Shown here in pieces: positions 1 to 15,325 of a stretch of 15,325 bases of DNA. Position numbers and translations under genes: made by a program. Source of the DNA: a bacterium (GTDB taxonomy: Bacteria > SZUA-182 > DTGQ01); NCBI GenBank assembly GCA_040752695.1, contig JBFMGO010000131.1, positions 1 through 15,325 on the forward strand, given 5' to 3'. The notes below the pieces were generated by a model, which was given only the letters and a program-made list of their open reading frames with translations, was not told the DNA's origin and searched no databases. Each line of letters starts with the position of its first letter. The first letter of the stretch is position 1.

Positions 1-54
1 TAATTTCCTTCCTATTCGATCTTAGGTAAAGTTATAAGATAAGGCCAGACAATG

Positions 55-70
55 TGGCATTCATTATGCA
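55..70 (+). promoter_or_regulatory. sigma54 (RpoN) -24/-12 promoter candidate for the beta-helix/multiheme cytochrome operon
   Basis: TGGCAT-TCATT-ATGCA: GG at 56-57 and GC at 68-69 with exact GG-N10-GC spacing, close to consensus TGGCAC-N5-TTGCA; about 165 nt upstream of the first gene. Confidence 0.6.
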
Positions 71-233
71 ATTATATAATATTATAGTTTTATCCTTTTC
101 CATTTTTCAATAACGGACGGTAGATTACGGTAGATTATAGAGAATGAGTCCGTTTTGCCTGATAACAGACCCAATAAAGGGTCCTCTCCATAAATATATT
201 CATAGAAACAGTAAGTTAAGGAGGATGCAGTTG

Positions 234-1025
234 ATGGAAGGGAAAAAAGTAATCTTTATGGCTCTTTTGGTTTTCCTGTTCATGATCGCTGTTCCCCTGT
301 CTACCTCTGGTGTAGAGGGGCAGATCGAGATTGTGCAGACACTTTCAACTACCTTTCCCATTCTTCTTGATGAGCCGGGAAATTACCTCTTGATGAGCGA
401 TCTTACCGTATCTGCCGTTGACACCAACTGTCTTCAGATCACTGCCGATGAAGTCATCCTCGATCTAAACGGCTACACCCTGAGCGGGCCGGGAAAGGGA
501 ATCGGCTCCAGCGGCTGCGGCATCTTGGCTTGCGGTCAAGACTGCATCACCATCCGCAATGGAACCATCCAGGGATTTTTCACTGGCCTTACCCTTTCGG
601 GAACAAGCCACGAGGTGAAAAACCTCAATGTTCTCAATAACACCTCCTGCGGCCTCGTGATCGAATCCGCGGCCCTGGCCAGTTGTACGGCTGCAAATAA
701 CGGATCTCACGGCATCGAGGCTGAAAGCTGCACCATAAAGGATTGCACGGCCAGCTACAATGGGGCCTGCGGCCTTTCTTCCAATTCATCAAACATAACC
801 AACTACACGGCGGACCATAACAGCTCTCACGGGATCTCGGCTACAGGCAATTGCCGCCTTGAGGGGTGCATTCTGAGTAACAATCAGGGCTATGGTCTTT
901 CCCTGCATCCCGATTACAGCTATGTCGTCAGGAATGGAACCAGCGCTAATGTCCTGGGAAGCTTTTCCATTGATGGTTTTCACTACCTGCCAACCAGCGG
1001 TGATGATGCCAATTATGAATTCTAA
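234..1025 (+). CDS. secreted right-handed parallel beta-helix repeat protein (pectin-lyase-like fold)
   Basis: Start re-assigned to ATG 234 (TTG 231 possible) behind AAGGAGG at 218-224. Signal peptide MEGKKVIFMALLVFLFMIAVPL. FPILLDEPGNYLLMSDL and ITADEVILDLNGYTLSG are typical beta-helix N-terminal motifs, followed by CTAxxNGxxGI-type repeats. Confidence 0.85.
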   Translation: MEGKKVIFMALLVFLFMIAVPLSTSGVEGQIEIVQTLSTTFPILLDEPGNYLLMSDLTVSAVDTNCLQITADEVILDLNGYTLSGPGKGIGSSGCGILACGQDCITIRNGTIQGFFTGLTLSGTSHEVKNLNVLNNTSCGLVIESAALASCTAANNGSHGIEAESCTIKDCTASYNGACGLSSNSSNITNYTADHNSSHGISATGNCRLEGCILSNNQGYGLSLHPDYSYVVRNGTSANVLGSFSIDGFHYLPTSGDDANYEF

Positions 1026-1047
1026 CCTTGGGGAAGAGGCCGATATC

Positions 1048-4000
1048 ATGAAGAGAAAAAAGAGAAAGACCACTTTTGCAAAAACCATTCTCATCTGTAT
1101 GGTGTGTCTTTTGAGTCCATGGATAATTTCGAAAGGGGTGTGGGCCGATCAGAACGATGCAGCCCACCAGACCCACCTGAGTGCAGCCAGAGGTCCCGGA
1201 CTGGGAGCGGACTGTGCGGCCTGTCATACAACCGGCACTCCGTCGGCAGCGGATGTCGGCTATTTCTTGTGTATTCCCTGCCACAGCCCGGCTGGGGCCT
1301 ATGATGGTCTGGATGATGCGGTGATCGGAGCCAGAGCCAATTGGGGAAGTGAATCTTCAGCCATTTACGAAGCGGACGGCAGCCTTAAGAGTGGAAAAGA
1401 AAAGTGGTGTGTAGGCTGCCATGATGATGGACTCAGTATCATTCAGGGCATACGTGCCCCGAACATTTCCGGTCAATCCATGAGCGGTGACTGGCAGGGG
1501 CCGGTTTCTTTGGTCTCCAGTGATATTCCGGGTGCGGAGAACCTTCTGGACGGCAATCCTGGTACGGGCAATACGGGGAATGGTTCTTATCTTATCGTTG
1601 ATCTTGGTGATACGGCTTCAATCTCTCACCTGAGACTTTTTATCACGTCCGGCACACAAGTTCACTGGGATGTCTACGGTGGAAGTGATCTTGTTTCCTG
1701 GACAAGGATACTGTTTGGCCAGTCAGTGCTTTTCGGCTCCCCCACCTGGCTGACAGGCCCTGATGGAGGGTGGAACGAAAGCAGGGCGGACCGGTTTCTT
1801 TCCATCCGCTACCTCAAACTGGTCAAGGTAAGCCCCTGGCCTCTGAGCGGGAATTGTCTTGGTGAGCTTGAAGTGAAAAAGGACCTGGCCTACGGCTACT
1901 ATGATACGGGGCATAAAATCGGATGCTCCCGCTGCCACGATACGAGCGGAGTGCATAGTGACGGTCTTGCCCGGACCTATGAGGCCGGTTTGAACAACTA
2001 CCGGACCGGCTACCGTCTCAATGAAGTGGAAGTGGACGGACAAATGGTGACTCCTCTTGAAATACCCAGAGTAGTGGGCTGTAACAGCGGAGAAAATCCC
2101 AGAACCGATAATGACTTTGCCCTCTGTTTTGCCTGTCATGACAAGATTAAACTGCTGGGTGACCCGTATGGTACGGGCATGTTTTTTCAGGATCCTCCGG
2201 CCACCAACTTCCGGAATGACGATCATGTCGATGGCAGCGGCAAGGTCATGAATGAGCATCTTCGTCATCTGCGGGGGAGATACTACTGCGGCAGCGGCCT
2301 TGACTGGGACTCTGACTGGGATGGTGTTACAGACTCACCCCAGAGCTGTCCGGCCTGCCACAATGTGCACGGCTCTCCCAATCCGGCCATGACCAGGCAT
2401 GGAGAACTGGCCGGCACTCAAGGGGCCGTGGACAAGGTTCCCCAGTTCAATTTCCGGTACCTGAATGCCGAAGGGAAGCCAGACACCGCTCTTTCGAACG
2501 TCATGGACAGCATCGGCGGCCAGACACAGTTCTATGGTGCAGGTCCGGGAACTGTGGATAAGAACCATGTGTGCTCTATGTGCCACAACGACATGATCAC
2601 CTATTATCGCAATCCAGTGCCGACCTGCCAGGGGTGCCACGCTTCCTACGTAGAGACGCAGGCCAGCCACTGCACCCATCTTCAGGCAGACCGGGGACCG
2701 AACCTCGAGTGCTGGGACTGTCATGCCGGCAGCCCTGATCAGCCCCACACCTTTGTCTTTGCCGATGGCAAACCGCTGGGGGAAACCGAAGTCTGTAATC
2801 CCTGTCACAGCCAGGGTGGATCATATGACGGAGTCGATGATCCCGATCTTGGGGCCAAGCCCAACTGGGAGCAGGGTGTCTATCAGGGAAACTCACTGAA
2901 ACCGGGCAAAGAGAAATGGTGTGCTACCTGTCACGATCAGGAACCAGCTTACAGCCAGCAGAGCTTTACTACCATCATCATCGATGACCCGCAAGCTGTC
3001 CTGTCTCCCGATTGCGCCGCCCCTCCCGGTAATCCGGCTGTAGAATGGGCTCATGCCTCGGGCAATGAGCAGCAGTACGGAGACGGCTACCGGTATAAAG
3101 ATATCGGCAGCGGCAGCGGTACGGTCACCTGGACACCCGATATCCCCTTAGCTGGCGAATACTCGGTCTATGCCCGCTGGGTAGACAGTACTTCACTGTG
3201 GAGAGCGACCAATGCCCCTTATACGGTTTATTACAGCGGCGGCTCTGAGACAATCAGGGTAGACCAGAGGAGGAAAGAAGACGGCGGACCGGGAGGCGGC
3301 CAGTGGCATTATCTGGGGACCTGGAATTTTTCTGCCGGAACTTCCGGCCGGGTAGTCTTAAGCGATGACGCGGATCATAAGTGGGTCATAGCCGATGCGG
3401 TCAAGTTCGTAAGCGGCCCAAAAGGTACCTATGCACCTAATATCGTTGGCAACGATACGGATTACGGCTTTTATAAAACCGGACATAAGATCGATTGTCT
3501 GGCCTGTCACGATGCCACGAAAACCCACCTCGATCACCAGCACCGAACCTATGAGGTTGATGAAGGAACCGGACAGGCAACTTTTCCCTATACCGACAGC
3601 TACCGGCTGCGGGAGATCGATGGCCTGCCGGCCATGAACCTGCCAAGACCTGTCTATCCTCCTGCCACCAGTCCCCATAATCACTGGCAGGATTTCGCCC
3701 TCTGCTTTGACTGTCATAACCGCTACGAGGTTCTGGGTGAAAACGGAAATGACGTCAGCCATACGAATTTCTGGAACAATGATTCCAGTATCGGCAACTC
3801 CCACTGGATTCACCTGAGCATCTACACCAAACACTTTGACTCCGACTGGGATGGAGCATCGGATTCAACCGAAAGCTGCATCTCGTGTCACAATGTGCAC
3901 GGCTCTCCCACAGGACCCATGATCCGCCACGGTGAATTGATCAGCCCATCCGGTACGAGTCAGTACACACCAGCCCTGAATTTCTTCTATCTCACTGAAG

Positions 4001-6090
4001 GGGACGGCTCAGCCACGGCTACCTTTACCCATCCCCTGGCTGGCGGAACATACGACGTTTATGCCTGGTGGAGCGATAATTCCAACCGCTCTACCTGCGC
4101 CAAATACATCATCAACTATCAGGGAGGATCGGACAGCGTTATCGTCGATCAGGAGCAGAACGGCGGGCAGTGGAATCTCCTCGGTCAGTATCCCTTTGCT
4201 GCCGGCAGCGAAGGTTCCGTGGTTCTGACCTCCGAGGGAGCCAATGAATACATCATGGCTGACGCCATCAAGTGGGACCGGACAGATGCAGGGGATACGG
4301 TTATTGTGGATGATCCCAATGCTTCCTATGTGGGAACCTGGGCTCTGTCGACATCCAATCCGGAACAATACGGATCGGGCTCCAGGTATTGCTATGCTCC
4401 GGTCAAGGATAGCGAGGCAACCATAGCAGAGAGTTTTGGCGGTACGTTTTCGGTAGGAGCTATCCTGACCAGCAACCATGTCTGCCAGATGTGTCATAAT
4501 TACGTGCAGTACAGCCGGATACCGAAAGCAGGGCCAAGGATAGTGCTGAAAAATGCCGATCCGTCCGGAGTTTCGAATGATCAATCGACTCCTGTTTTGT
4601 TTACCGTCTTTGTGAGTGACCGGGACGATAACCTGAGCAGTGTGGTGATCGACCTCACCCCGCTCGGCGGGAACCCGGACCGGGTTATGTATGACGACGG
4701 ATCGAATGGTGATGTCACCGCTGATGACGGAACCTTCAGTTATCGATACAGTGTGCCTTCAGGCATCGATTGTGGACCGAAAACTCTGACGGTAACCGCT
4801 ACTGATGCCCTGGGCTTGAGCGGACAGGGGGGTATCCCTCTTACGGTTACCCAGCCGGGAGCCATTATCGTGGATAATCCCGATGCGGTATTTGCAGGTA
4901 CCTGGACCGAATCCACCAGTTATCCTGACAGGTTCGAAGACAGCTATCATTACCATAGCGCCGGAAGCGGTACGGATACGGCTACCTGGACTGTCACGAT
5001 ACCGGCGGCAGGTAATTATGATGTCCATGCCTGGTGGACTGCCGATTCCAGCCGGGCAACGGACGCGAAATACACCGTCTTCTTTGAAGGTGGATCTCAA
5101 GAAGTGGTCAGGAGTCAGCAAATTAAGGGCGGATGCTGGAATCATCTGGGAACCTGGTTTTTTCTTCCGGGAGAATACGCGGTGGTCCTGTCCGATGATG
5201 CGGATGGCTATGTGATCGCCGATGCCATAAAGTGGGCACCTGAAAACGGTCCCGTCTTGTATCCTTTCCCTGTCAGCGATAATCCCGATGCCCACTATGT
5301 TGGCCCCTGGAAAGTATCAGACGTAAACAGTGATAACTATGCCGCAGATATGTATTACCTTGCTGCCGGCAGCGGCGGCAATAACGCCACCTGGACGCTG
5401 GCCGTTCCGGAGGCTGGTAACTACAATGTCTATGCCTGGTGGTCGGCCTCGGACAACCGGGCTGCCGATGCCCTGTACACCATCACCTATGAAGGAGGAT
5501 CAGAAACTGTTGAGGTATGCCAGCAGGTACGGGGCGGCCGCTGGAACTATCTGGGCAACTTTCCCTTTCTTTCGGCTCATTACACGGTAGTTCTCACCGA
5601 CGAGGCTACAGACTATAATAGTGCAAGCTCAGGTCCCTTTGTTATTGCCGATGCCATCAGGTTTGAGGCGGGCAGCGCCCCGGCTCACCCTTATCCGATA
5701 GCGGACAACTGGGATGCCGTTTTTGCCGGCCCCTGGTTAGCCGCAAGCTGGACCGGAGGGGGAGCATTTTATGGCTCCGATTATCAGTACCATGCCGCAG
5801 GCTCAGGAGCCTGCTCCGTCACCTGGACAACGGATATCCCGGAGCAGGGAAGCTATCATGTCTATGCCAGATGGACAGCCAGTTCCAACCGGGCCACCAA
5901 TGCACCGTATACCATCTTCCATGGGGGCGGATCGGACGTGGTTACCGTCAATCAGAGAAGCAGCGGCGGGCAGTGGGTACTTTTGGGAACCTATACTTTT
6001 CCCGTGGGAACGTATTCGGTCGTTCTCTCTGACCAGGCCAATGGATATGTGATAGCCGATGCTGTCTGGTGGGAAAAAGTGAATCCTTGA
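1048..6090 (+). CDS. large secreted multiheme c-type cytochrome (15 CxxCH) with discoidin-like, five golvesin/Xly-CBD-like and choice-of-anchor-X-like domains
   Basis: ATG 1048 follows GGGAAGAGG and begins a Sec signal peptide (MKRKKRK...KGVWA|DQ). Motifs counted: CAACH, CIPCH, CVGCH, CSRCH, CFACH, CPACH, CSMCH, CQGCH, CWDCH, CNPCH, CATCH, CLACH, CFDCH, CISCH, CQMCH. Five domains carry GxYxVxAxW...RxxxAxY...GGxWxxLG...ADA(V/I)x(F/W). MYDDGSNGDVTADDGTF motif at 4687-4737. Confidence 0.93.
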   Translation: MKRKKRKTTFAKTILICMVCLLSPWIISKGVWADQNDAAHQTHLSAARGPGLGADCAACHTTGTPSAADVGYFLCIPCHSPAGAYDGLDDAVIGARANWGSESSAIYEADGSLKSGKEKWCVGCHDDGLSIIQGIRAPNISGQSMSGDWQGPVSLVSSDIPGAENLLDGNPGTGNTGNGSYLIVDLGDTASISHLRLFITSGTQVHWDVYGGSDLVSWTRILFGQSVLFGSPTWLTGPDGGWNESRADRFLSIRYLKLVKVSPWPLSGNCLGELEVKKDLAYGYYDTGHKIGCSRCHDTSGVHSDGLARTYEAGLNNYRTGYRLNEVEVDGQMVTPLEIPRVVGCNSGENPRTDNDFALCFACHDKIKLLGDPYGTGMFFQDPPATNFRNDDHVDGSGKVMNEHLRHLRGRYYCGSGLDWDSDWDGVTDSPQSCPACHNVHGSPNPAMTRHGELAGTQGAVDKVPQFNFRYLNAEGKPDTALSNVMDSIGGQTQFYGAGPGTVDKNHVCSMCHNDMITYYRNPVPTCQGCHASYVETQASHCTHLQADRGPNLECWDCHAGSPDQPHTFVFADGKPLGETEVCNPCHSQGGSYDGVDDPDLGAKPNWEQGVYQGNSLKPGKEKWCATCHDQEPAYSQQSFTTIIIDDPQAVLSPDCAAPPGNPAVEWAHASGNEQQYGDGYRYKDIGSGSGTVTWTPDIPLAGEYSVYARWVDSTSLWRATNAPYTVYYSGGSETIRVDQRRKEDGGPGGGQWHYLGTWNFSAGTSGRVVLSDDADHKWVIADAVKFVSGPKGTYAPNIVGNDTDYGFYKTGHKIDCLACHDATKTHLDHQHRTYEVDEGTGQATFPYTDSYRLREIDGLPAMNLPRPVYPPATSPHNHWQDFALCFDCHNRYEVLGENGNDVSHTNFWNNDSSIGNSHWIHLSIYTKHFDSDWDGASDSTESCISCHNVHGSPTGPMIRHGELISPSGTSQYTPALNFFYLTEGDGSATATFTHPLAGGTYDVYAWWSDNSNRSTCAKYIINYQGGSDSVIVDQEQNGGQWNLLGQYPFAAGSEGSVVLTSEGANEYIMADAIKWDRTDAGDTVIVDDPNASYVGTWALSTSNPEQYGSGSRYCYAPVKDSEATIAESFGGTFSVGAILTSNHVCQMCHNYVQYSRIPKAGPRIVLKNADPSGVSNDQSTPVLFTVFVSDRDDNLSSVVIDLTPLGGNPDRVMYDDGSNGDVTADDGTFSYRYSVPSGIDCGPKTLTVTATDALGLSGQGGIPLTVTQPGAIIVDNPDAVFAGTWTESTSYPDRFEDSYHYHSAGSGTDTATWTVTIPAAGNYDVHAWWTADSSRATDAKYTVFFEGGSQEVVRSQQIKGGCWNHLGTWFFLPGEYAVVLSDDADGYVIADAIKWAPENGPVLYPFPVSDNPDAHYVGPWKVSDVNSDNYAADMYYLAAGSGGNNATWTLAVPEAGNYNVYAWWSASDNRAADALYTITYEGGSETVEVCQQVRGGRWNYLGNFPFLSAHYTVVLTDEATDYNSASSGPFVIADAIRFEAGSAPAHPYPIADNWDAVFAGPWLAASWTGGGAFYGSDYQYHAAGSGACSVTWTTDIPEQGSYHVYARWTASSNRATNAPYTIFHGGGSDVVTVNQRSSGGQWVLLGTYTFPVGTYSVVLSDQANGYVIADAVWWEKVNP

Positions 6091-6123
6091 TAAGATAAGG
6101 TAAGTCCTTGATGAAAGGCCAGT

Positions 6124-6163
6124 TCCTGAACAGGCCGGGTTTTCTCTCCCGGCCTGTTCAGGA
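6124..6163 (+). terminator. perfect 16-bp hairpin after the cytochrome gene (terminator or 3' stabiliser)
   Basis: TCCTGAACAGGCCGGG (6124-6139) / CCCGGCCTGTTCAGGA (6148-6163) with an 8-nt loop, 33 nt after the stop codon; no strong U-tract follows. Confidence 0.6.
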
Positions 6164-6389
6164 CGTTATGGTCTGCAATCGATTGAGCCGCGACGTATGA
6201 CCCGAGTTCCCCTCCTTTTTTCTCAAATCTAAGGATAATCCATCCCGGTGCCGGTTCCGTCTTTCCTCCCCTGGCGCCATTCTTCCCCCTTGCCGGATAG
6301 TGAATCATGTAACTCAAGAAAAGGTATTTTTAAGGGTAACGACCCCCTTTATTTTAAGCAAATTTTACGTATTTTTTACATACTTTCGG

Positions 6390-6418
6390 TTGACATTCGG
6401 ATTGATTTGATTTAAAGT
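6390..6418 (+). promoter_or_regulatory. sigma70-type promoter candidate upstream of the hydrogenase operon
   Basis: TTGACA (6390-6395)-N17-TAAAGT (6413-6418), preceded by an AT-rich UP-like tract. Confidence 0.5.
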
Positions 6419-6945
6419 GAAAGATGTGTTCCGAGAAGTTAGAGATTCTTGCTTTATGGAATTTGGGAGTAAGGATCGAAATTTTTCGGAATTTTTTTTT
6501 AGGCGGGTGAATTGATTTATTCCTGTATGTATTTATCGACTGCTCCTGATCGCTTCTTCAATCCCAAAAAACGAATCAGCCCTTTAGATTTTTTAACTTA
6601 TAGTAAATTATCACTTTAAATTATAGATAATAAATTATCCATCCCAACGCGAGGGAAGGATCATGAGGCCAGAGCGATAATATAAATAAGAAGACTTAAA
6701 GAAGGATAGATAATAGAAGCGGTGAGTGGTTACAAGGAATAGACAAGAGAGGGAATCGGGATGGGAAAAGATCGGAATGCGAAAAGATAGGAAAGCCTGA
6801 TTCCTGAATTTTCTACTCTTGACTCCTGAATAAGGAGTCTGAATTCCTGGAACTTACCTGAATCTTACATTTACAAAGGTATGGAATTAAAAAATGTCAA
6901 AATCAGATCTGTTACCACGGTCTACTGAAGAAAGAAAGGGAAAAT

Positions 6946-7971
6946 ATGCGACTGCTTTTTCTTCAAAAAGATGAACTGGCACCATTTGTTTGCAATCTTA
7001 TTGCTTCGCAGGAAGTAGTAGGACCGAAAGCCAGGAAGGGTAGGTTCGTATTTGATAAGCTGGAGAGTCCGGATGAATTGCGGTTGGACTACGATACGAC
7101 CATTCTTCCTCCGAAAAAATATTTTTTTCAACCCCAGCAGGACCTGATTAAATTCTCTCCCGGAGAATTCAAGGGGTGCATCGAACCGAAGCCAAGGATT
7201 CTTTTCGGTGTACATCCATACGATATCAAAGCCATATCTATGCTGGACCATCTGTTCAGCGAGGGGAAAAAGGATTGGAATTATCTGGCTCACCGCCAGG
7301 CTGCCACCATCGTGGGCATCAATGTTCACAAAGTATACAAGCACGCATTTTTTGAAAGCATGGGAGCCAGTATTGTTACCAAAGGGTATGACCTGTTCCT
7401 GACCGACATCGGAGAGGAGGGGTTTGTGGTTGATGTGGCCACGGACAAAGGGGAAGATCTGGTTCGGCTTGGCAGCTTTGATCAGGCTGCTCCTGAACAG
7501 ATGCAAAAACGCAGAACGATCCTGTACGGACAAACCGACCGGTGCCCGCAGAAGCTGGATCGCATGCAGGATGAAATTGCCGAAAAGGTAAGCCTTTCCT
7601 ATAACCATCCGATCTGGGAGGAAATGGCCGGGCGCTGCTTCTCCTGCGGTGCCTGCAATCTGGTTTGCCCCACCTGCTATTGTTTCGATGTGCAGGACGT
7701 CTGGAATCTCGATCAGGCATCCGGAACCCGGTTTCGGACCTGGGATGGCTGTCTGACCGAAGATTTCGCCAAGGTCACCGTGCAGGGGGGGCAGGAGAAC
7801 TTTCGCGAGGATCGTGCTTCCCGTTATCGTCACCGGATCATGCGCAAAGCGGTTTATTTGAATACTAAGCTGGAAGGGCCTGCCTGTGTGGGTTGCGGCC
7901 GATGTGCTTCGGCGTGCCCTGCAGATCTGGCTAACCCGGTACCTGTCCTCAATACCATTATGGAGGAATAA
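6946..7971 (+). CDS. hydB: group 3b [NiFe] hydrogenase (sulfhydrogenase) beta subunit, AsrA-like 4Fe-4S protein
   Basis: CFSCGACNLVCPTCYCFD and CVGCGRCASACP ferredoxin motifs, RTWDGC, LDYDTTILPPKKYFF; first gene of the B-G-D-A order. Confidence 0.9.
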   Translation: MRLLFLQKDELAPFVCNLIASQEVVGPKARKGRFVFDKLESPDELRLDYDTTILPPKKYFFQPQQDLIKFSPGEFKGCIEPKPRILFGVHPYDIKAISMLDHLFSEGKKDWNYLAHRQAATIVGINVHKVYKHAFFESMGASIVTKGYDLFLTDIGEEGFVVDVATDKGEDLVRLGSFDQAAPEQMQKRRTILYGQTDRCPQKLDRMQDEIAEKVSLSYNHPIWEEMAGRCFSCGACNLVCPTCYCFDVQDVWNLDQASGTRFRTWDGCLTEDFAKVTVQGGQENFREDRASRYRHRIMRKAVYLNTKLEGPACVGCGRCASACPADLANPVPVLNTIMEE

Positions 7972-7972
7972 C

Positions 7973-8848
7973 ATGGATTACCCTTATCTTACTGACAAAG
8001 AAGAGAAGGTCAAGGAAGCTGTTCAGGGAGAGGAAAACATTTTTTTGCCCAAAGTGGCCAAGATTCTCCATGTGCAGCCAATGGCCAAAACCGAGAAGCA
8101 TTTTCGGCTTGCCTTCCAGGATGGCACGCCAATGGCTCATCAGCCTGGCCAGATTGTGGAAGCCTCCATTTTCGGCTTTGGAGAGATCCCACTGGGAATT
8201 GCCTCTACCCCCACCCGCGAAGACCATTTCGATGTGGTGATTCGAAAGACTGGACGCGTTTCCGGTGCCCTGTGGGACCTGAATCAGGGCGATGCCATGT
8301 ACATTCGCGGCCCTCTGGGCAAAGGTTTTCCGGTAGAGGAGTTTAAGGGGCATGATGTACTCATTGTTGCCGGAGGGATCGGCCTTTGCCCTACCAGAAG
8401 CATGATTGAATATATCGAGGATCGCAGGGAGGAGTTCGGGCGGTTTATCCTGTTTTTCGGTGCCCGCTCACCAAAGGAGCAGCTTTTTCTCGACGATCTC
8501 GAGCGATGGAGAAAAGAAAAAGAGTGGATCGAATACCATGAGACCGTTGACCAGGCCGGTGGGGACTGGAATGGTAACGTAGGAGTTATCACCACTCTTT
8601 TCGGCAAGACCGACATCAGCAAAGATACCAGGGTGATCATCTGCGGCCCCCCCGTTATGTATAAATTTGTCATAAAGGAATTGAAAAAGCTGTCTATTCC
8701 GGATTCTCATATCTATGTTGACCTGGAACGTAGAATGAAATGCGGCGTAGGAAAGTGCGGGCATTGCCAGATTAATGGCCTCTACGTGTGTACCGATGGG
8801 CCGGTCTTTAATTTTGCCAGGATAAAAAACTTGGAGGAGGCGTTCTAA
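7973..8848 (+). CDS. hydG: sulfhydrogenase gamma subunit, FAD/NAD(P)-binding oxidoreductase with 2Fe-2S cluster (AsrB/PyrK-like)
   Basis: Start ATG 7973 after GGAGG. Motifs IRGPLGKGF, VAGGIG, CGPPVM and LERRMKCGVGKCGHCQ...VCTDGPVF. Confidence 0.92.
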   Translation: MDYPYLTDKEEKVKEAVQGEENIFLPKVAKILHVQPMAKTEKHFRLAFQDGTPMAHQPGQIVEASIFGFGEIPLGIASTPTREDHFDVVIRKTGRVSGALWDLNQGDAMYIRGPLGKGFPVEEFKGHDVLIVAGGIGLCPTRSMIEYIEDRREEFGRFILFFGARSPKEQLFLDDLERWRKEKEWIEYHETVDQAGGDWNGNVGVITTLFGKTDISKDTRVIICGPPVMYKFVIKELKKLSIPDSHIYVDLERRMKCGVGKCGHCQINGLYVCTDGPVFNFARIKNLEEAF

Positions 8849-9595
8849 ATGAGTAGACCAAAGGTCGCCTTTTTTGACTTCACCAGTTGCGAAGGGTGTC
8901 AGGTTGAGATTGCCAATTTCGACCAGGATTTGTTGAAGATGCTTCAGGCGATAGAGGTGGTGGAATTTCGGGAGATCATGAAAGAAACCTGCTCCGCGCC
9001 TTTGGATATTGCTTTTGTGGAGGGAAGTTTCTCGCGGGAAAAGGACCGTGCCCGGCTTCAGAAGATCCGCCAAAGGTCCAGGCTGGTGGTGGCCTATGGT
9101 TCCTGCGCAGCCACCGGCGGAATCAATGCTTTGAAGAATCATAAACCCGTTTACAAATACAAGGTGGAAGTATATGGCGCAGATGCAACCCTGCCCCACC
9201 TTGAAACCCAGAAAGCCCTGCCTATTTCAGCGGCTATTCCGGTTGATCTGGCTATTCCCGGCTGCCCGGTTAACCGCGATGAATTCGTCCGGCTGGTTTC
9301 GGACCTTTTGCACGGCAAGGCGCCGACTATTCCAAACTATCCGGTCTGTATGGAATGTAAAAAGAAGGAAAATATCTGCCGTTATGAGCTGGGAGATACC
9401 TGTCTTGGCGTGGTTTCCCGGGCAGGCTGCGGTGCTCTGTGTCCGTCTCATGACACACCCTGTGAGGCCTGCCGGGGCTTTGTGGACACCCCTAACCTGA
9501 ACTCCCTGGTGGATGTTCTGGTCAAGGGCGGCATGCAGCCCGCTTATGCCAGGATCAAGGCACAGATGTTTACGGCAAATCTGGTGGAGGAATAA
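8849..9595 (+). CDS. hydD: group 3b [NiFe] hydrogenase small (delta) subunit
   Basis: FTSCEGCQ, VEGS, GSCAATGG, IPGCP, VCMECK, CLG...GCGALCP...CEACRG; no Tat signal, so cytoplasmic; abuts the hydG stop codon. Confidence 0.93.
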   Translation: MSRPKVAFFDFTSCEGCQVEIANFDQDLLKMLQAIEVVEFREIMKETCSAPLDIAFVEGSFSREKDRARLQKIRQRSRLVVAYGSCAATGGINALKNHKPVYKYKVEVYGADATLPHLETQKALPISAAIPVDLAIPGCPVNRDEFVRLVSDLLHGKAPTIPNYPVCMECKKKENICRYELGDTCLGVVSRAGCGALCPSHDTPCEACRGFVDTPNLNSLVDVLVKGGMQPAYARIKAQMFTANLVEE

Positions 9596-9600
9596 GCCCT

Positions 9601-10920
9601 ATGGGACAAAAAATCAATATCAATCTGCAGCACGTAACCCGGGTCGAGGGACATGGAAACATCATTGTCAATGCCACGAATGGCAAACTGGAGCGATGTG
9701 AATGGCAGGTGCCCGAATCACCCCGGTTTTTTGAATCTATGGTGAGGGGCCGGCATTTTCCCGAAATCGCCCGCATTACCTCACGTATCTGCGGCATCTG
9801 CTCAGTAGGGCATCAACTGGCTTCGGTCAAGGCCACGGAAAAGGCGCTTGGCATAGAAATTTCCGAGCAGACCGACAAACTGCGGCGGCTTCTGAAGCAT
9901 GGTGAAAATTTTGATTCTCACATTCTCCATGTCTACTTCCTCGTTGCTCCCGATCTTTTGGGAGTTTCATCAGTAATGCCTCTGGCTGCCTCCCATCCGG
10001 AAGTGGTCAAGCGTGCTCTGGCCATGAAGGGAGTGGGGAGCCGATGGTCCGGCATTATCTGCGGCCGGTCCACCCATCCGGTGCGGATCGTGCCCGGCGG
10101 TTTTTCCAAACTGCCCACTAAGGCAGAGCTCCTTGAATTGAAAAAGCTCATTCTGGATACGGTGCCGGATGTAAAGGCAACTGCCGAAACTCTTCAATCA
10201 CTTGCCGATCGAATACCGGCATTTGAGCGAAAAACAGAATATGTGGGACTGGTGGACTCCGTGGAGTACGGCCTGTACGACGGCCGCATCGGATGCCTTA
10301 TGCCGGATGGACAAAGGACTTTACTGAATGTCGAAGAATACCGCTCGGTAACGAACGAATGGGTCAGCCCTCTGTCTACGGCGAAATATACCAGGCATCA
10401 AATGGACTCCTATATGGTTGGAGCCCTGGCCCGGATCAACCTCAATTTTCAGCAGTTGCACCCGGAGGCAAAAAAAGTCGCCGAGAGTCTGGGATTCAGT
10501 GTCCCTTGCTATAACCCTTACATGAATACCGTAGCCCAGTTTATCGAGGCAGTCCATTCCGCTTATGCAGGGCTGGACCTCATCGACAGCCTGCTGGATG
10601 CCGGGCTGCGGGAGGAAGAGGTACCGCCGATCCAGCCGAGGGCCGGCCGCGGAGTGGGCGCGGTGGACGTGCCGCGAGGGATTCTTTTCCACGACTATGA
10701 ATATGATGAATCCGGCCTTTGCCTTTCAGCCAACTGCATCATCCCGACCAACCAGAACCACGCCAATATCCAATGTGATATGGATCAACTGGTGCCGGCT
10801 ATGATTCGAAGCAACAAGAGTCAGGCGGAAATGGAATTGAGTCTGGAAATGCTGGTTCGTGCTTATGATCCCTGTATCTCCTGCTCAACGCATTACCTGG
10901 ATATTACCTTTGTGAAGTGA
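9601..10920 (+). CDS. hydA: group 3b [NiFe] hydrogenase large (alpha) subunit
   Basis: TRVEGHG, L1 motif RICGICSVGH, VPRG, L2 motif RAYDPCISCSTH plus an 8-aa cleavable C-terminal extension; Cys rather than Sec at the Ni site. Confidence 0.96.
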   Translation: MGQKININLQHVTRVEGHGNIIVNATNGKLERCEWQVPESPRFFESMVRGRHFPEIARITSRICGICSVGHQLASVKATEKALGIEISEQTDKLRRLLKHGENFDSHILHVYFLVAPDLLGVSSVMPLAASHPEVVKRALAMKGVGSRWSGIICGRSTHPVRIVPGGFSKLPTKAELLELKKLILDTVPDVKATAETLQSLADRIPAFERKTEYVGLVDSVEYGLYDGRIGCLMPDGQRTLLNVEEYRSVTNEWVSPLSTAKYTRHQMDSYMVGALARINLNFQQLHPEAKKVAESLGFSVPCYNPYMNTVAQFIEAVHSAYAGLDLIDSLLDAGLREEEVPPIQPRAGRGVGAVDVPRGILFHDYEYDESGLCLSANCIIPTNQNHANIQCDMDQLVPAMIRSNKSQAEMELSLEMLVRAYDPCISCSTHYLDITFVK

Positions 10921-10955
10921 GCATAAAGAAGTCGGGAGTCAAGTGAGTAAAAAAC

Positions 10956-11036
10956 GTCAGGAGTCAGAATCCCGAAAATGCGATAAAAACAGCATTTTTT
11001 CTGATTCCTGACTGACTCTTTTGGTTTTTGGATTTT
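10956..11036 (+). terminator. 14-bp stem followed by U-rich tracts between hydA and the protease gene
   Basis: GTCAGGAGTCAGAA (10956-10969) pairs with TTCTGATTCCTGAC (10999-11012, one G-U pair), followed by TGACTCTTTTGGTTTTTGGATTTTT; the loop is long (29 nt). Confidence 0.4.
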
Positions 11037-11158
11037 TGGGTAAGTAAAGGGGGCGGAGAGGATTTCTATTTTTGTAGTCTGCTCAAGTGCAAACCGCTAT
11101 AACATTGATAGCCGGGAAAGACTATTAACCTGCAATAACGAAAAAGGGGCAAACAGAC

Positions 11159-11620
11159 ATGGGTAAAAAAATAGCTATCGGTATGGGCAATTACCTTATG
11201 CAAGATGATGGCATTGGACCGAAAGTGATTGAGCAGATCTGTCTTCGTGAGCTGGATCAGAATTTTGAAACCGAAGACATAGCGACGGACGGTTTGCGGT
11301 TGTTCAAGCACTTTAATAATGAAACGGAAAAAATTGTCATTATCGACTCTGCCTATATGGGCCAGGAGCCTGGCACAGTAATAGTCTTTTCTCCGGATCA
11401 GGTTCAAACCGCGAAAACAAATCAGCCAATCAGCACCCATGAGGGAGATATCCTTAATCTGATCAATCTGGGCAAGATGCTGAATCTTCCAATTCCCGAA
11501 ATTAGAATTGTGGCCATTGAACCGGACCAGGTAGATGCAGGAGATGAACTCTCCATTCGACTGCGGGGCAAAGTGGATGAAGTGATCCAACACGTAATCA
11601 GGGAACTTTCCTGCCAGTGA
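11159..11620 (+). CDS. hydrogenase maturation endopeptidase (HycI/HyaD/HybD family)
   Basis: IGMGNYLMQDDGIG, IVIIDSA and STH motifs; lies directly downstream of the large subunit that carries a C-terminal extension. Confidence 0.93.
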   Translation: MGKKIAIGMGNYLMQDDGIGPKVIEQICLRELDQNFETEDIATDGLRLFKHFNNETEKIVIIDSAYMGQEPGTVIVFSPDQVQTAKTNQPISTHEGDILNLINLGKMLNLPIPEIRIVAIEPDQVDAGDELSIRLRGKVDEVIQHVIRELSCQ

Positions 11621-11771
11621 AAAGACGACCTTTGGCTTTCGCTTGAAGGGTTTATGAAAGGGACAGTAACGCTTGATGTTCAAGCTCTTTGAATGAAAAC
11701 TATAACCTCTTGTTTTTTAGGTTAAACGGTTGATATTTTACCATGAAAGAAAATCAAGAGGGCAGCCGGAT

Positions 11772-11817
11772 AAAAACCAAGAGGGCAGACCAGATATGGC
11801 CTGCCCTCTTGGCATTT
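11772..11817 (-). terminator. rho-independent terminator for the minus-strand gene (possibly bidirectional)
   Basis: CCAAGAGGGCAG (11777-11788) / CTGCCCTCTTGG (11801-11812), followed by TTTTT on the minus strand and CATTTT on the plus strand; lies between convergent genes. Confidence 0.75.
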
Positions 11818-11883
11818 TCAGGTTAGAAAGCTACCCTTGGTAATTTCCAAGGATTTTTCTCAAACGCGCAGTAATCTCTTTAG

Positions 11884-12723
11884 TTAGATAATCGCGCTTG
11901 GGGCCAGGAACGTCGGGAAGATTGGAGATATCGTTGGCGCTACGAAGGTCGTGGGGAAAGTTGGCCCTACGAAAGTTGTCGGGATAGTTGGTCCTACGAA
12001 AGTCGTCGGGATAGTTGGCCCTACCCAGGTTGTGGGCGGAACTGGAGGTACCCAGGTTGTCGGGATAGTTGGTCCTACGAAAGTCGTCGGGATAGTCGGC
12101 CCTACCCAGGTTGTGGGCGGAACTGGAGGTACCCAGGTTGTCGGGATGGTTGGCCCTACGAAAGTTGTCGGGATGGTTGGCCCTACCCAGGTTGTGGGCG
12201 GAACTGGAGGTACCCAGGTTGTCGGAACGGTGCCGAGAACTGGTGAGGGAAGAACCATCAGGTAAGCCAGGAGAGCTGCATTGCCAAGAGGTACATTGGT
12301 GTTAATCCAGGAACTGGCTGTTGGCGGCAGAAGCTCATAATCCAGGGGAAGATTGACAGGCAGAGGCGATCCGCTCGCATCGAGTAAATAAGATGGTGGC
12401 CAGAGGTTTACTCCGCCAATTGGATCATAATAAGCCATGCCGATCGGAGTATTATACAGTAACCAGGGTTCAGCCGCAGCCGGGTCCCAGGTCAGGCCGG
12501 GCTGAACAGGCAAAACGGTAGCAGGAGTCAACTCGGATACGATCGGGACTGGCAATCCGGTAATAGAGTCGACAGGGGACAGGGCGGGAGACCACAATGG
12601 CCAAAGTGTGTTATAGGGAGGCAGTGCCATCCAGTTTTGGGCTTGGGCAACAGGTGAATAGGCGAGAACTAAGGCAACTAAGCTGAGCAAAAGGGCGTAA
12701 GCGAGTCTCTTCGTGGTAATCAT
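11884..12723 (-). CDS. secreted Pro/Thr/Trp-rich hypothetical protein with C-terminal 9-aa tandem repeats
   Basis: GGAGG RBS (cctcc 12735-12739); signal peptide ending in AQA|QNW; own terminator; the repeats stay in frame with synonymous third-position variation. Confidence 0.85.
   Translation of the reverse strand: MITTKRLAYALLLSLVALVLAYSPVAQAQNWMALPPYNTLWPLWSPALSPVDSITGLPVPIVSELTPATVLPVQPGLTWDPAAAEPWLLYNTPIGMAYYDPIGGVNLWPPSYLLDASGSPLPVNLPLDYELLPPTASSWINTNVPLGNAALLAYLMVLPSPVLGTVPTTWVPPVPPTTWVGPTIPTTFVGPTIPTTWVPPVPPTTWVGPTIPTTFVGPTIPTTWVPPVPPTTWVGPTIPTTFVGPTIPTTFVGPTFPTTFVAPTISPIFPTFLAPSAII
11929..12225 (-). repeat. coding minisatellite: 11 x 27-bp units with an 81-bp higher-order period
   Basis: (PTTWVPPVP-PTTWVGPTI-PTTFVGPTI)x3 + PTTFVGPTF + PTTFVAPTI; 297 bp in total. 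Confidence 0.95.
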
Positions 12724-12743
12724 TGTAAAAGCTTCCTCCGTAC

Positions 12744-12777
12744 TCTTTGAAAACGTATCTTTCTTTGTAAACGTATC
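12744..12777. repeat. 16-bp direct repeat just upstream of the RBS of the minus-strand gene
   Basis: TCTTTGAAAACGTATC (12744-12759) and TCTTTGTAAACGTATC (12762-12777), 1 mismatch. Confidence 0.7.
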
Positions 12778-13053
12778 GTTAGATATTAAAACAGTAAGAC
12801 AACAGTAACCCTAGAACCAATCTTATTTACATTTGCTTCGCACTTTTTGTAGTTATCTCACCTCCCTTCCTCGCTTTGCAGAATCGTGCTCTTTAAGACA
12901 CAGAAAGACACCCGTGAAAGGATATCGAGGAATGCCTTACAATAAGGCGAATTGTAACATCTGGAATCCTGAAGAGCAGTTTCTGAAAAGTCATTTCAGG
13001 CAAACTTCATCCGCCAAAGAACCGTCAGACATAGTTAAGTTCCATGGAAATCA

Positions 13054-13125
13054 GCATCTTAAGCGTCTCAAGTGAACCCTTTAGTACCCACCCGCATCTT
13101 AAGTATCTCAAGAACTTTAAGTATC
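13054..13125. repeat. 19-bp direct repeat, period 40, with a partial third copy
   Basis: GCATCTTAAGCGTCTCAAG (13054-13072), GCATCTTAAGTATCTCAAG (13094-13112), TTAAGTATC (13117-13125). Confidence 0.7.
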
Positions 13126-13624
13126 CAGGTTATAGGCACTGAGGGTTATCTTGGGCCAATCATCAGGGAGTTACTTCCGTATACCAGGGTATTGTGGGAA
13201 AAAGGTAGAGATACACCTGCCGAATCTCATTTGCATTGGGCTTGTTTAATCTCTCTCTTCTCCCTTGTTGCTCCTGCTGTGTTGGACAGTTTTGTCCTTC
13301 ATGCGCTTTTATATCCTACATCATTTGCTGGGGAGGGATAGGATCAAGCACTTTTAAACAGACAATTGGAGCATACTCCCGGATCTGAAGAATGGTCACT
13401 GGCACGGATGGAGCTTGCAGATATACGTATTAGATGTTTTTAAAGCATATGGGCGACTAAGGCATTTTCCTCCTTATCAATTTCAGTTGACTGTGCCTGT
13501 GGTTATTTAACTTTATCTCTCTTACAACTCTCTTTTCTCTCTCGATCCTGCGTGATCGGTCTTTTGTCCCCTCTCTCTTAAGGGCAAGTTCCAGATCGAT
13601 TGAACAGAATCATTCTTCTTAAAG

Positions 13625-13639
13625 GCAATTTTTATGCCC
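13625..13639 (-). promoter_or_regulatory. sigma54 promoter candidate pointing toward the Pro/Thr-rich gene
   Basis: Minus strand reads GGGCAT-AAAAA-TTGC: GG-N10-GC with a canonical TTGC -12; about 900 nt from the start codon. Confidence 0.4.
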
Positions 13640-13964
13640 GGCATTAAAATTTCCGGATATGAATGCACTACAGGTTTAAATTTTCAGGATTTGACCCGCT
13701 TCCCAGGGGAGCAGCTTCATGGCAGGGAGGGTTACTGTCGGATACTCCGAAGAGACGAACTCTTAAAAATAATGGGAGGCTGAGAGCCATTGAGAGCACT
13801 TGTTTTCCATCTGCTTGATACATGCGAGATAAGAAGGGGGCCTTCCATCATAGTAACTATGGACAGACTCATATTTTATATGAAGTTACAGGAGTTACAG
13901 GTAAATGGAAGTGGTAATACCGGAGTGTAGAGCGCTCCTCGCTCATACCGGCGGGGTATAACAC

Positions 13965-14026
13965 TTCCAGCCCTCAAGTTTTATTCTCTCAATTTGCCAA
14001 AACACGATGAAGCTTGAGGGCTGGAA
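13965..14026. repeat. 14-bp perfect inverted repeat in the intergenic region
   Basis: TTCCAGCCCTCAAG (13965-13978) / CTTGAGGGCTGGAA (14013-14026), extendable by about 3 bp inward. Confidence 0.75.
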
Positions 14027-14514
14027 AGCTTAAGCAATGATCGTCACTTTTTTATCCCGGCCCTTACATCCTGCTTTTTCTATCTGCTTTTTCTATAACG
14101 CTACCGCTTAAATTCCTTAATACACGGCGAGGGAATTACCCGGCTCGTTATTGAACCAGGGGCATTTCCCGAAAACCCCTTCAATAACCGCTCATGAGTC
14201 CCTCACCCCCTTTACAAAAGGGGGGATAAAAACCCTTATCAGAGGGGATAGTGATTAACCGGCCGCATATTTCATGTGCGGTGTACTGAAGTAACACACC
14301 TTCAGGCAATGCACTTTGACTTTCGATTAAATCTCATAATTCTTACGCCCAAGTAATGAAAGCTTTTCGGTAAAATAATTGAATGTGCACTACACGTATC
14401 TCAAATTTTCTTCGTCCCCTTAACCCAGGTTTACAAAAACTTTTTAAAATTTCCCTACAATAGGTGAAGATGAACGCTCACGAGCAAAGCAGTGTTTCAA
14501 AATAAAATTCTTGC

Positions 14515-14595
14515 TTGACAAATGAGTGACTAAGTGATTATTATTAATTACATTAAAATCTTAGTTTTGACATAAAATATATTAAATAATATAAA
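14515..14595 (+). promoter_or_regulatory. tandem sigma70-type promoter candidates in a very AT-rich tract upstream of the CARF gene
   Basis: TTGACA (14515-14520)-N18-TATTAT (14539-14544) and TTGACA (14567-14572)-N17-TATAAA (14590-14595). Confidence 0.5.
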
Positions 14596-14704
14596 ATATT
14601 ATTCATAGATTATATTTTATTTTAAAAAATTACAGAAATACTAATGAGAGCCAGTGTCTGTCCTTTGCCCTATAAGTAGCTGATGAATTCGGTATTTTCT
14701 CTCT

Positions 14705-14767
14705 TGTTTAATTTAAACCTGCTGTATGGCTGTTTAATTTAAACCCGCTTTATGAACCTGCTTTATG
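14705..14767. repeat. tandem 24-bp repeat (period 26), each copy containing the palindrome GTTTAA-T-TTAAAC
   Basis: TGTTTAATTTAAACCTGCTGTATG (14705-14728), TGTTTAATTTAAACCCGCTTTATG (14731-14754), partial AACCTGCTTTATG (14755-14767). Confidence 0.75.
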
Positions 14768-15008
14768 GGCAGCATTTTTGGTTTTTTCCACCCCAGGCGC
14801 ACTCTGGAACTATAAAAAGTGCTATCTGGGGGCAGCTACTCGTTAACTAAAGCTAAGGGTTACCCTTACATACCTATTCAGATGTAAACCCAGTCGGTTA
14901 TCGCTGGCTTGTCCGGCAATTTGCTCAGGCTTTGCCTCTCCACATCGGGCTCAAACGTCGATTTCCGGATTCATTCAATAAAACTGACAGGCTGCCAGGG
15001 AGTATATT

Positions 15009-15325
15009 ATGGATAAATATCAAGAATTTAATAATCTAATCCTTCTTATTGGCACTAATCCCCTCCCTAATTTTGTTGTGGCTGATTATTTTTTGCGGAT
15101 CAATCAGAATATCCAATCCATTTGGCTTACTTACTCAGAAGCAAAAAACATGCTGCAGACAGGGACGGATAAACAGGCAAAAAATCTGGAAACCCTGCTG
15201 CGAAAGCTGTGGGAGGGAAAACAGTGTCCTTCCGGCAAGCTTGCACGAAAAACAGATCAAGAGATGGTATCATTAGAAGGCGAAGGGATTATGCCTGCCT
15301 TGGCAGTCATGGGGAAGAAACACTT
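15009..15325 (+). CDS. N-terminus of a CARF-domain protein (Card1/Can2/DUF1887-like), truncated by the window edge
   Basis: Manual translation from ATG 15009 (after AGGGAG): MDKYQEFNNLILLIGTNPLPNFVVADYFLRINQNIQSIWLTYSE..., open to the window end. The hydrophobic strand plus GTNPLPN matches CARF motif I of DUF1887-type proteins. Confidence 0.7.
   Translation, partial: MDKYQEFNNLILLIGTNPLPNFVVADYFLRINQNIQSIWLTYSEAKNMLQTGTDKQAKNLETLLRKLWEGKQCPSGKLARKTDQEMVSLEGEGIMPALAVMGKKH

Follow-up and report, generated by a model that had tools for sequence, protein, structure and literature searches.

Several extracellular cytochromes offer points of comparison for the gene described here, a 15-heme cytochrome c gene at 1048-6090 (+ strand) in a 15,325-nucleotide stretch of DNA from an uncultured bacterium (lineage SZUA-182; DTGQ01; GenBank assembly GCA_040752695.1, contig JBFMGO010000131.1, positions 1 to 15,325; hereafter the window). 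OmcA and MtrC, which serve extracellular electron transfer and are exported by the type II secretion system (T2SS), interleave heme domains with beta domains, and OmcS, OmcE, OmcZ and the archaeal ECN are cytochrome nanowires. Cytochromes with adhesion-type or carbohydrate-binding domains are also described in excerpts of the published record. OetF of syntrophic sulfate reducers is a multiheme cytochrome with fibronectin domains, proposed to bind a conductive matrix or to recognise a partner (PMC10553843), and MHC-C of anaerobic methanotrophic archaea (ANME) is large and anchorless, and its pectin-lyase-like domain has been suggested to recognise the wall of the partner (PMC9012536). Similarly, planctomycete-specific c-type cytochrome (PSCyt) domains occur fused to carbohydrate-binding modules (CBMs) and F5/8 domains (PMC5615132), Geoalkalibacter has a 24-heme surface cytochrome with Fn3 adhesion domains (PMC12016550), and it has already been speculated that CBMs aid cytochrome adhesion in ANME (PMC5244752).

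The product of our gene (P0001; 1680 amino acids (aa), with no internal stop in the translation) consists, as regards its hemes, of two homologous seven-heme modules, A and B, plus one linker heme (heme 8). The module defines an undescribed family with exchangeable inserts, and this family links an uncultured bacterium to syntrophic alkane-oxidising archaea. Its members differ mainly in the binding domain carried at three fixed loops and at the ends. The family bears on an open problem, namely how syntrophs both recognise and electrically contact each other.

Like OmcA and MtrC, P0001 interleaves heme and beta domains. It differs from them in lacking a lipobox, in having 15 hemes rather than ten, in scoring 28.3 against the cut-off of 30 for PF22113 and in giving no match to TIGR03507 (OmcA/MtrC) at E 0.01; MtrC structures were matched weakly, at motif level (E 0.048), and no mtrB was found in the host. 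With OmcS, OmcE, OmcZ and ECN it shares an anchorless, His-rich, multiheme and probably secreted character, but it is much larger, carries binding domains and has no sequence match to the solved subunits. Compared by features, OetF resembles P0001 in joining a multiheme cytochrome to adhesion-type domains, whereas its Fn3 domains and oetABI porin-cytochrome cluster have no counterpart: P0001 has no fn3 match and no such cluster was seen, its neighbours in the window being a beta-helix gene and a hydrogenase operon. The likeness to MHC-C lies in a beta-helix that is encoded just upstream of P0001 and fused to the module in a paralogue (C2); on the same comparison of features, however, the P0001 chain has no Beta_helix match and its binding domains are inserted within the heme module. 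P0001 differs from MHC-A/B in having neither an S-layer Pfam match nor a C-terminal transmembrane (TM) segment, and from the PSCyt fusions in its heme domains, no PSCyt Pfam match being found. Xanthan lyase (6F2P) and the Bacteroides lectins Cbeg4/Cbeg5 share the golvesin/Xly-CBD family with P0001 (PMC9166713), but there the domain is joined to a lyase or to Fn3, and in P0001 it is joined to hemes, five times and once in permuted form. By the features tested, P0001 is a member of none of the OetF, MHC-C, PSCyt-CBM or Geoalkalibacter Fn3 types.

The family is not described in main-text passages of PMC5566968, PMC11475568 or PMC9539880, and passages of two papers on xanthan CBMs (PMC10049358, PMC11002231) hold nothing on the lyase C-terminal domain. 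We found no literature pairing a multiheme cytochrome with golvesin or CBM32, in a search that was thin on subscription journals, and none pairing one with discoidin among the matches listed. Cytochrome-adhesin fusions have precedent, but no published account of the seven-heme family or its plug-in design was found.

Architecture of the cytochrome

The start at 1048 was preferred to that of the longest open reading frame (ORF), which begins at 892 within the upstream gene, because it matches the N-termini of the paralogues. The 15 CxxCH motifs compare with a mean of 0.039 and a maximum of 2 in shuffled controls (n=2000). Hydropathy above 1.5 in 19-residue windows was confined to starts at aa 8-15, which indicates an N-terminal signal-type stretch and no C-terminal TM segment; the lipobox pattern search was negative. 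These tests agree with the original prediction of a signal peptide, 15 motifs and neither lipobox nor TM anchor. As expected of a multiheme c-type cytochrome, the motifs and the N-terminal hydrophobic stretch are accompanied by two heme-attachment genes in the host genome (PF01578 above cut-off in both). In a Pfam scan of P0001, Golvesin_C (PF25275) scored 482.8 bits against a cut-off of 31.6, in five stretches; Cytochrome_C7 and Paired_CXXCH_1 were above cut-off and MtrC II/IV below it. The features of the gene are as follows.

1048..6090 (+): 15-heme cytochrome c gene, P0001, 1680 aa (translation and CxxCH count)
1048..1146 (+): Sec-type signal peptide, aa 1-33, no lipobox (hydropathy, lipobox pattern; cleavage near aa 33 judged by eye)
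1165..1422 (+): first part of module A, HxxH and hemes 1-3 (motifs, alignment)
1474..1884 (+): CBM32 / F5-8-type beta-sandwich at site 1 of module A, with invariant His194 (profile, predicted fold)
1912..2607 (+): second part of module A, hemes 4-7, HxxH, DxDxDG-type acidic loop and CxxCHNxHG (motifs, alignment, AlphaFold)
2626..2640 (+): linker heme 8 (CxxCH motif)
2668..2934 (+): first part of module B, HxxH and hemes 9-11 (motifs, A-B alignment)
2974..3414 (+): golvesin/Xly-CBD (CBM35-like) domain at site 1 of module B, the position of CBM32 in module A (Pfam, own profile, predicted fold)
3484..3930 (+): hemes 12-14 of module B (motifs)
3997..4422 (+): circularly permuted golvesin domain in site 3, flanked by hemes 14 and 15 (alignment; own profile 3976-4422; blocks of predicted local distance difference test (pLDDT) 82-97)
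4483..4497 (+): heme 15, the last of module B (CxxCH motif)
4528..4860 (+): Ig/PKD-like domain with choice-of-anchor X motif (NCBIfam, predicted fold)
4864..5238 (+): C-terminal golvesin domain 1 (Pfam, own profile; match to xanthan lyase 6F2P, E 3.8e-20)
5269..5670 (+): C-terminal golvesin domain 2 (Pfam, own profile)
5695..6078 (+): C-terminal golvesin domain 3 and protein end, without anchor (Pfam, own profile, hydropathy)

Modules A and B (residues 37-520 and 521-1160; 31% identity, E 5e-55) follow the same order: an HxxH, three hemes, two hemes, a further HxxH, an acidic DxDxDG-type loop, CxxCHNxHG and the last heme. An insert of 137 aa follows the third heme of module A; module B has a golvesin domain in the same place and a second one ahead of its last heme. 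In 42-45 near full-length rows, nine non-motif His of the seven-heme module A (40, 43, 194, 289, 303, 404, 407, 441 and 451) are invariant, as is Met448. Across 214 modules, the His after heme 4 was found in 213, the inner HxxH in 208 and the N-terminal HxxH in 185; a His occupies the MxRxG position in 177 of 200. There are eight conserved non-motif His per seven-heme module, besides His194 in the CBM32 insert of module A, and this is enough for bis-His ligation of every heme in the module to be possible on sequence grounds.

A known cytochrome family for P0001 was considered and ruled out. The sole NCBIfam match of the protein is choice-of-anchor X, with no cytochrome family called, and its relatives touch the DmsE, GSU2203 and MtrC models only far below their cut-offs. 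By sequence, the heme core gave nothing beyond motif-level matches among solved structures (2, 23 and 18 structure matches; best E 0.006 and 0.0007), and these include no homologue of the nanowire subunits OmcS, OmcE, OmcZ or ECN. The ESM Atlas search with aa 278-525 (top score 0.86) gave generic doubled-CXXCH clusters and is a lead only. AlphaFold models of the module A half (aa 34-525) and the module B half (aa 526-1271) had mean pLDDT of 86.4 and 81.4, the latter with a predicted template modelling score (pTM) of 0.65; their fold-search lists were dominated by beta domains, so the fold of the heme core is not reflected in them. The seven-heme module is probably a multiheme fold new to description, and the original statement that no characterised family has the architecture of P0001 stands.

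The beta domains are binding-type sandwiches by predicted fold, as had been proposed. The insert at 1474-1884, first described as discoidin-like, did not reach the Pfam gathering score (PF00754, 17.4 bits against 28.2), yet its predicted fold matches 7D2A (Z 15.3, root-mean-square deviation (rmsd) 2.0, 119 aligned) and its profile the CBM32 of CpGH89 (E 1.7e-5), which suggests a divergent CBM32 member. Five golvesin/Xly-CBD domains were recovered within a few codons of the coordinates first given. A golvesin domain matched the C-terminal domain of xanthan lyase 6F2P (Z 20.9, rmsd 1.6, 135 aligned, 38% identity), and also CBM35s (Z 11.6-13.8) and the xanthan-binding MiXBM (Z 12.9). The second is circularly permuted, its residues 2-93 corresponding to 35-125 and 102-131 to 2-31 of the normal copy. 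The domain noticed earlier for its YDDG motif proved to contain choice-of-anchor X (NF041940, 27 bits against a cut-off of 25) inside an Ig/PKD-like domain (predicted fold Z 10.8, rmsd 1.9, 89 aligned). The original description was right in its domain content and missed the two-module design and the permuted insert; P0001 is no isolated fusion but belongs to a widespread modular family. Golvesin_C is, we assume, the family listed as IPR033803 in the work on Cbeg4/Cbeg5, golvesin and xanthan lyase being members of both. Isolated Bacteroides domains of this golvesin/xanthan-lyase CBM family (Cbeg4/Cbeg5) bind glycans on an array, as an excerpt of that work reports (PMC9166713).

The module family and its archaeal members

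With P0001 as query, 195 relatives were found among 8000 scored candidates, the best 120 of which were listed; module A as query found 115 shorter ones. Recognisable modules numbered 220, in 195 of 242 collected proteins, a sample biased by having been seeded with P0001. Site 1, after heme 3, was empty in 110 of the 220 (median spacing 45 aa) and held CBM32 in 69 and a golvesin-type domain in 41. Golvesin occupied site 2 in 11 modules (one to three domains) and, as the permuted type, site 3 in 47; circular permutation was verified for P0001's own domain, the others being permuted-type by class. No insert at all was found in 89 modules, and five had long unrecognised inserts. The exact domain string of P0001 occurs in no other of the 127 proteins compared.

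As a stand-alone seven-heme protein of 530-645 aa, the module was present in 17 of 78 genome loci, most of them from Desulfobulbaceae or from other members of Thermodesulfobacteriota or Deltaproteobacteria. In Nitrospirota, Spirochaetota, Bacillota, Chloroflexota, Gammaproteobacteria, Calditrichota, Bacteroidota and archaea it forms part of larger, fused chains, and its identity across phyla is 50-60%. In the host genome, 15 modules are spread over 11 genes; matches were obtained in all five other genomes of the host's family and in 11 of 40 relatives searched. Family members and their neighbours contain beta-helix, InlB-B, Ig, PKD, TSP3 and NHL domains and tails of the type IX secretion system (T9SS), all typically extracellular. 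At L060, L062 and L070, which are loci of Bacteroidota and Calditrichota, a gene for an NHL propeller with a T9SS-type C-terminal domain precedes that of the module; the domain is over the cut-off in two of the three.

Among the matches listed, the closest near full-length relative is P0003 of Candidatus (Ca.) Methanoperedenaceae GB50 (Ca. Ethanoperedens), with 54% identity over 89% of the query. This 1776-aa protein has 17 CxxCH motifs, the same inserts as P0001 and two terminal golvesin domains rather than three, and it clusters with OFV67993.1 of Ca. Syntrophoarchaeum caldarius at 95% identity. At the DNA level, the Ethanoperedens gene of GB37 (L001:9197-14527) and that of another Syntrophoarchaeum locus (L003:9203-14323) are 93% identical over a 2.6-kb stretch, and their flanks are unrelated. 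Such identity within the gene, between unrelated flanks, points to a recent transfer between the two archaeal lineages. By eye, a transposase-like ORF lies immediately upstream of the cytochrome gene in L001. We ruled out that the GB50/GB37 record derives from the bacterial partner Desulfofervidus: the L001 neighbours are archaeal-type (by eye), and Table S3 of PMC7175092 places the gene on its archaeal sheet. That table lists FHEFKHOI_00149 (5331 bp, 'Doubled CXXCH motif'), transcribed in the ethane-oxidising consortium at 273, 261 and 251 reads per kilobase per million (RPKM); from its equal length and annotation, we infer it to be the P0003 gene. In passages of the article it is not among the 11 archaeal cytochromes tabulated by the authors. 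Transfer of electrons to partner bacteria has been proposed for the alkane oxidisers that have these closest relatives (PMC7175092).

Several relatives from outside the diderm bacteria end in a hydrophobic anchor. The Syntrophoarchaeum copies (L003, P0123) have a C-terminal PGF motif and a hydrophobic helix, the Archaeoglobus copy (L009) has a C-terminal hydrophobic helix, and two Coriobacteriia genes on L058 also end in a hydrophobic anchor; no NCBIfam sorting signal was called on the Syntrophoarchaeum and Archaeoglobus copies. N-glycosylation sequons number 2.1-3.0 per 100 aa in the archaeal near full-length copies against 0.6 in P0001. By eye, P0003 and P0123 also show further motifs of wider spacing (Cx5CH, Cx8CH) that are probably heme sites.

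A quick tree of 91 module cores, supported only by the Shimodaira-Hasegawa-like approximate likelihood ratio test (SH-aLRT), placed module B with L002 and the second modules of Archaeoglobus, Ethanoperedens and Syntrophoarchaeum (95) and module A with host-like paralogues and stand-alone forms (98). As the two modules fall in different clades, the P0001 gene is a mosaic. Together with their 31% identity, this placement rules out a recent tandem duplication.

Proposed role and its alternatives

On balance, we think it somewhat probable that P0001 is a secreted, glycan-tethered extracellular electron-transfer protein. It would be exported by Sec and have its hemes attached, to judge from the signal, the motifs and the maturation genes, and would then cross the outer membrane, for which type II secretion is the probable route (gspD, the gene for its secretin, is above cut-off at two loci of the host genome). 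Outside, its CBM32 and CBM35-like domains, as modelled, would hold it non-covalently to the cell's own exopolysaccharide, to surface glycans or to a partner, in place of a lipid or TM anchor. Electrons would hop along mostly bis-His hemes to or from a mineral, matrix or cellular partner, so that the hemes would link the cell's outer redox chain with a solid or cellular partner. Their direction would rather more probably be outward, from oxidation of H2, formate or acetyl-CoA, since the host appears to be an anaerobe in whose genome (96.6% complete) neither dsrA over cut-off nor a heme-copper oxidase was found. Swapping of loop and end domains would retarget one wire to different surfaces. A location outside the cell is supported indirectly, by the anchored relatives in archaea and Coriobacteriia and by the host secretin. 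The sequon-rich archaeal copies, the alkane-oxidising hosts of the closest relatives, the transcription of a probable homologue and the exterior-type domains of the family also speak for this assignment. The surface-docking electron conduit originally proposed is partly supported: two of the three conditions given as refuting it were examined and neither applies, the protein matching no characterised family and its beta folds being of binding type.

A number of observations weigh against this assignment. P0001 is itself anchorless, as are the copies of Ethanoperedens, ANME-1 (L022) and ANME-3 (L028, L029), and only three of 195 module-bearing proteins, one seemingly spurious, pass a test of C-terminal hydrophobicity. 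No MtrB/PioB porin (PF11854) was found in the one, 96.6% complete host genome, and a rough screen revealed no barrel-like gene beside host cytochromes; the stand-alone forms in Desulfobulbaceae and others have no shared neighbours and no porin-cytochrome cluster. (Genes for OprB or a phosphate porin lie near two stand-alone loci.) Expression in the Ethane50 culture is modest, at 251-273 RPKM for FHEFKHOI_00149 against ~14,800 for the top small cytochrome in excerpts of PMC7175092. The heme chain was modelled as two separate insert-bearing pieces divided at the A-B junction, with pLDDT blocks of only 38-74 across the first 110 residues of module B. Finally, the one or two surplus conserved His and the invariant Arg and Tyr are also compatible with an active site.

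The anchorless chain and the failure to find a porin partner would equally suit a relay or store of electrons in the periplasm, or beneath an S-layer, whose binding domains grip peptidoglycan or envelope glycans near hydrogenase and formate dehydrogenase. The genes of C18 (L080), L027 and L040 fit this idea: their neighbours, judged on N-terminal motifs, resemble periplasmic hydrogenase or formate dehydrogenase. At these loci the two-module cytochrome also adjoins another seven-heme cytochrome of ~700 aa. We nevertheless regard a periplasmic relay as unlikely, because six binding domains, the beta-helix, InlB, PKD and TSP3 fusions and the T9SS-tailed neighbours are features of the cell exterior, a plain shuttle would hardly call for a chain of ~180 kDa whose tips vary, and anchored forms occur in monoderms and archaea. 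Less probable still is an extracellular multiheme redox enzyme, with a catalytic module and CBMs docking on a polymer (polysaccharide or humic matter) as in lyases and hydrolases. The module identity across phyla, its invariant Tyr, Arg and Met and its surplus His speak for catalysis, the nearest solved domains belong to polysaccharide-degrading enzymes, and in passages of PMC5615132 the PSCyt-CBM fusions are interpreted in this way. However, P0001 has neither CxxCK nor an atypical, longer motif that leaves a His free, its His are in surplus where a five-coordinate heme implies a deficit, the best relatives are in alkane-oxidising archaea and not in glycan degraders, and 89 of the 220 modules have no CBM insert.

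The beta-sandwiches of an extracellular conduit could also be non-binding spacers, stabilisers or protein-protein contacts, to which we give slightly less credence than to the enzyme. The galactose-binding-like fold serves non-lectins too, muskelin, APC10 and IFT25 being in the fold list of the CBM32 insert, and His194 of that insert, invariant in 43 of 43 rows, may contact a heme instead. Against this stand the interchange of CBM32 and golvesin at one loop, the tandem copies at the free C-terminus, 12 mostly aromatic positions kept across 153 domain copies, and the glycan binding of golvesin-family members elsewhere, as given in part of PMC9166713. A bolder extension of the glycan-tethered electron-transfer protein, which we hold to be doubtful, would make the module an unrecognised electron-wire chassis common to bacteria and archaea, with the lectin inserts as address labels that choose partner or matrix and the gene traded between syntrophs; the 95% identity between Ethanoperedens and Syntrophoarchaeum, both with the partner Desulfofervidus, is cited for the trading. 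If true, one protein would couple partner recognition to interspecies electron transfer.

In this family a single protein unites a heme chain with small binding domains that can be expressed separately, and the family occurs in cultured alkane-oxidising consortia. It is a natural case of domains plugged into a cytochrome, circular permutation included, and the module may mark extracellular electron transfer that name-based family scans have missed.

Gene neighbourhood and host genome

The gene upstream of the cytochrome gene, 22 bp before it, is as follows.

234..1025 (+): secreted right-handed beta-helix protein (TIGR03804 weak; start 234 by alignment, ORF from 144)

The two genes are likely to form one operon; a promoter and terminator scan of the window was at chance level (8 against 6.5 and 4 against 6.4). 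Two paralogues of the beta-helix protein match Beta_helix or NosD. Its relatives are encoded immediately before module genes at C105, C18, L027, L036 and L094 and at no other of the loci compared. As they are not beside paralogue C1:135559 or the stand-alone forms, the beta-helix protein is a lineage-specific partner at most. By eye, an 11-bp direct repeat (34-44 and 6090-6100) flanks the pair of genes and may be due to chance.

Downstream, a five-gene operon (6946-11620, + strand) encodes a cytoplasmic sulfhydrogenase-type (group 3b-like) [NiFe] hydrogenase and a maturation protease, the four subunits matching ShyA/B/D and HydA/B/D/G models below their equivalog cut-offs. A functional tie to the cytochrome was dropped: the enzyme is cytoplasmic, 855 bp away and not beside the paralogues, and the operon is probably a separate unit.

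The host genome (6.05 Mb) fits an anaerobe heavily invested in cytochromes. It contains 49 ORFs with at least three CxxCH (502 motifs), 11 of them with the module, which indicates a heavily electroactive lineage, and it encodes acetyl-CoA synthase and several molybdopterin enzymes. Very large cytochromes, with up to 28 CxxCH, lie in clusters at C5:1000-45000 and C4:77000-87300 (L086, L088, L089); the clusters also contain NHL propellers, an invasin/Ig/Fn3 protein and a double peptidyl-prolyl isomerase, and no recognised porin.

At the far end of the window, the open-ended ORF at 15009 has no family match. At 11884-12723 (- strand) lies a gene for a secreted 279-aa protein that has no Pfam or NCBIfam match and closes with nine 27-nt Pro/Thr-rich repeats; BLAST with its N-terminal part yields 32 match lines in the genome, which suggests a large lineage-specific family, perhaps of surface proteins. 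The intervening ~2.3 kb (12724-15008) is AT-rich and has no convincing ORF, and it contains a 20-bp inverted repeat (13965-14026) and a 24-nt direct repeat (14705-14754).

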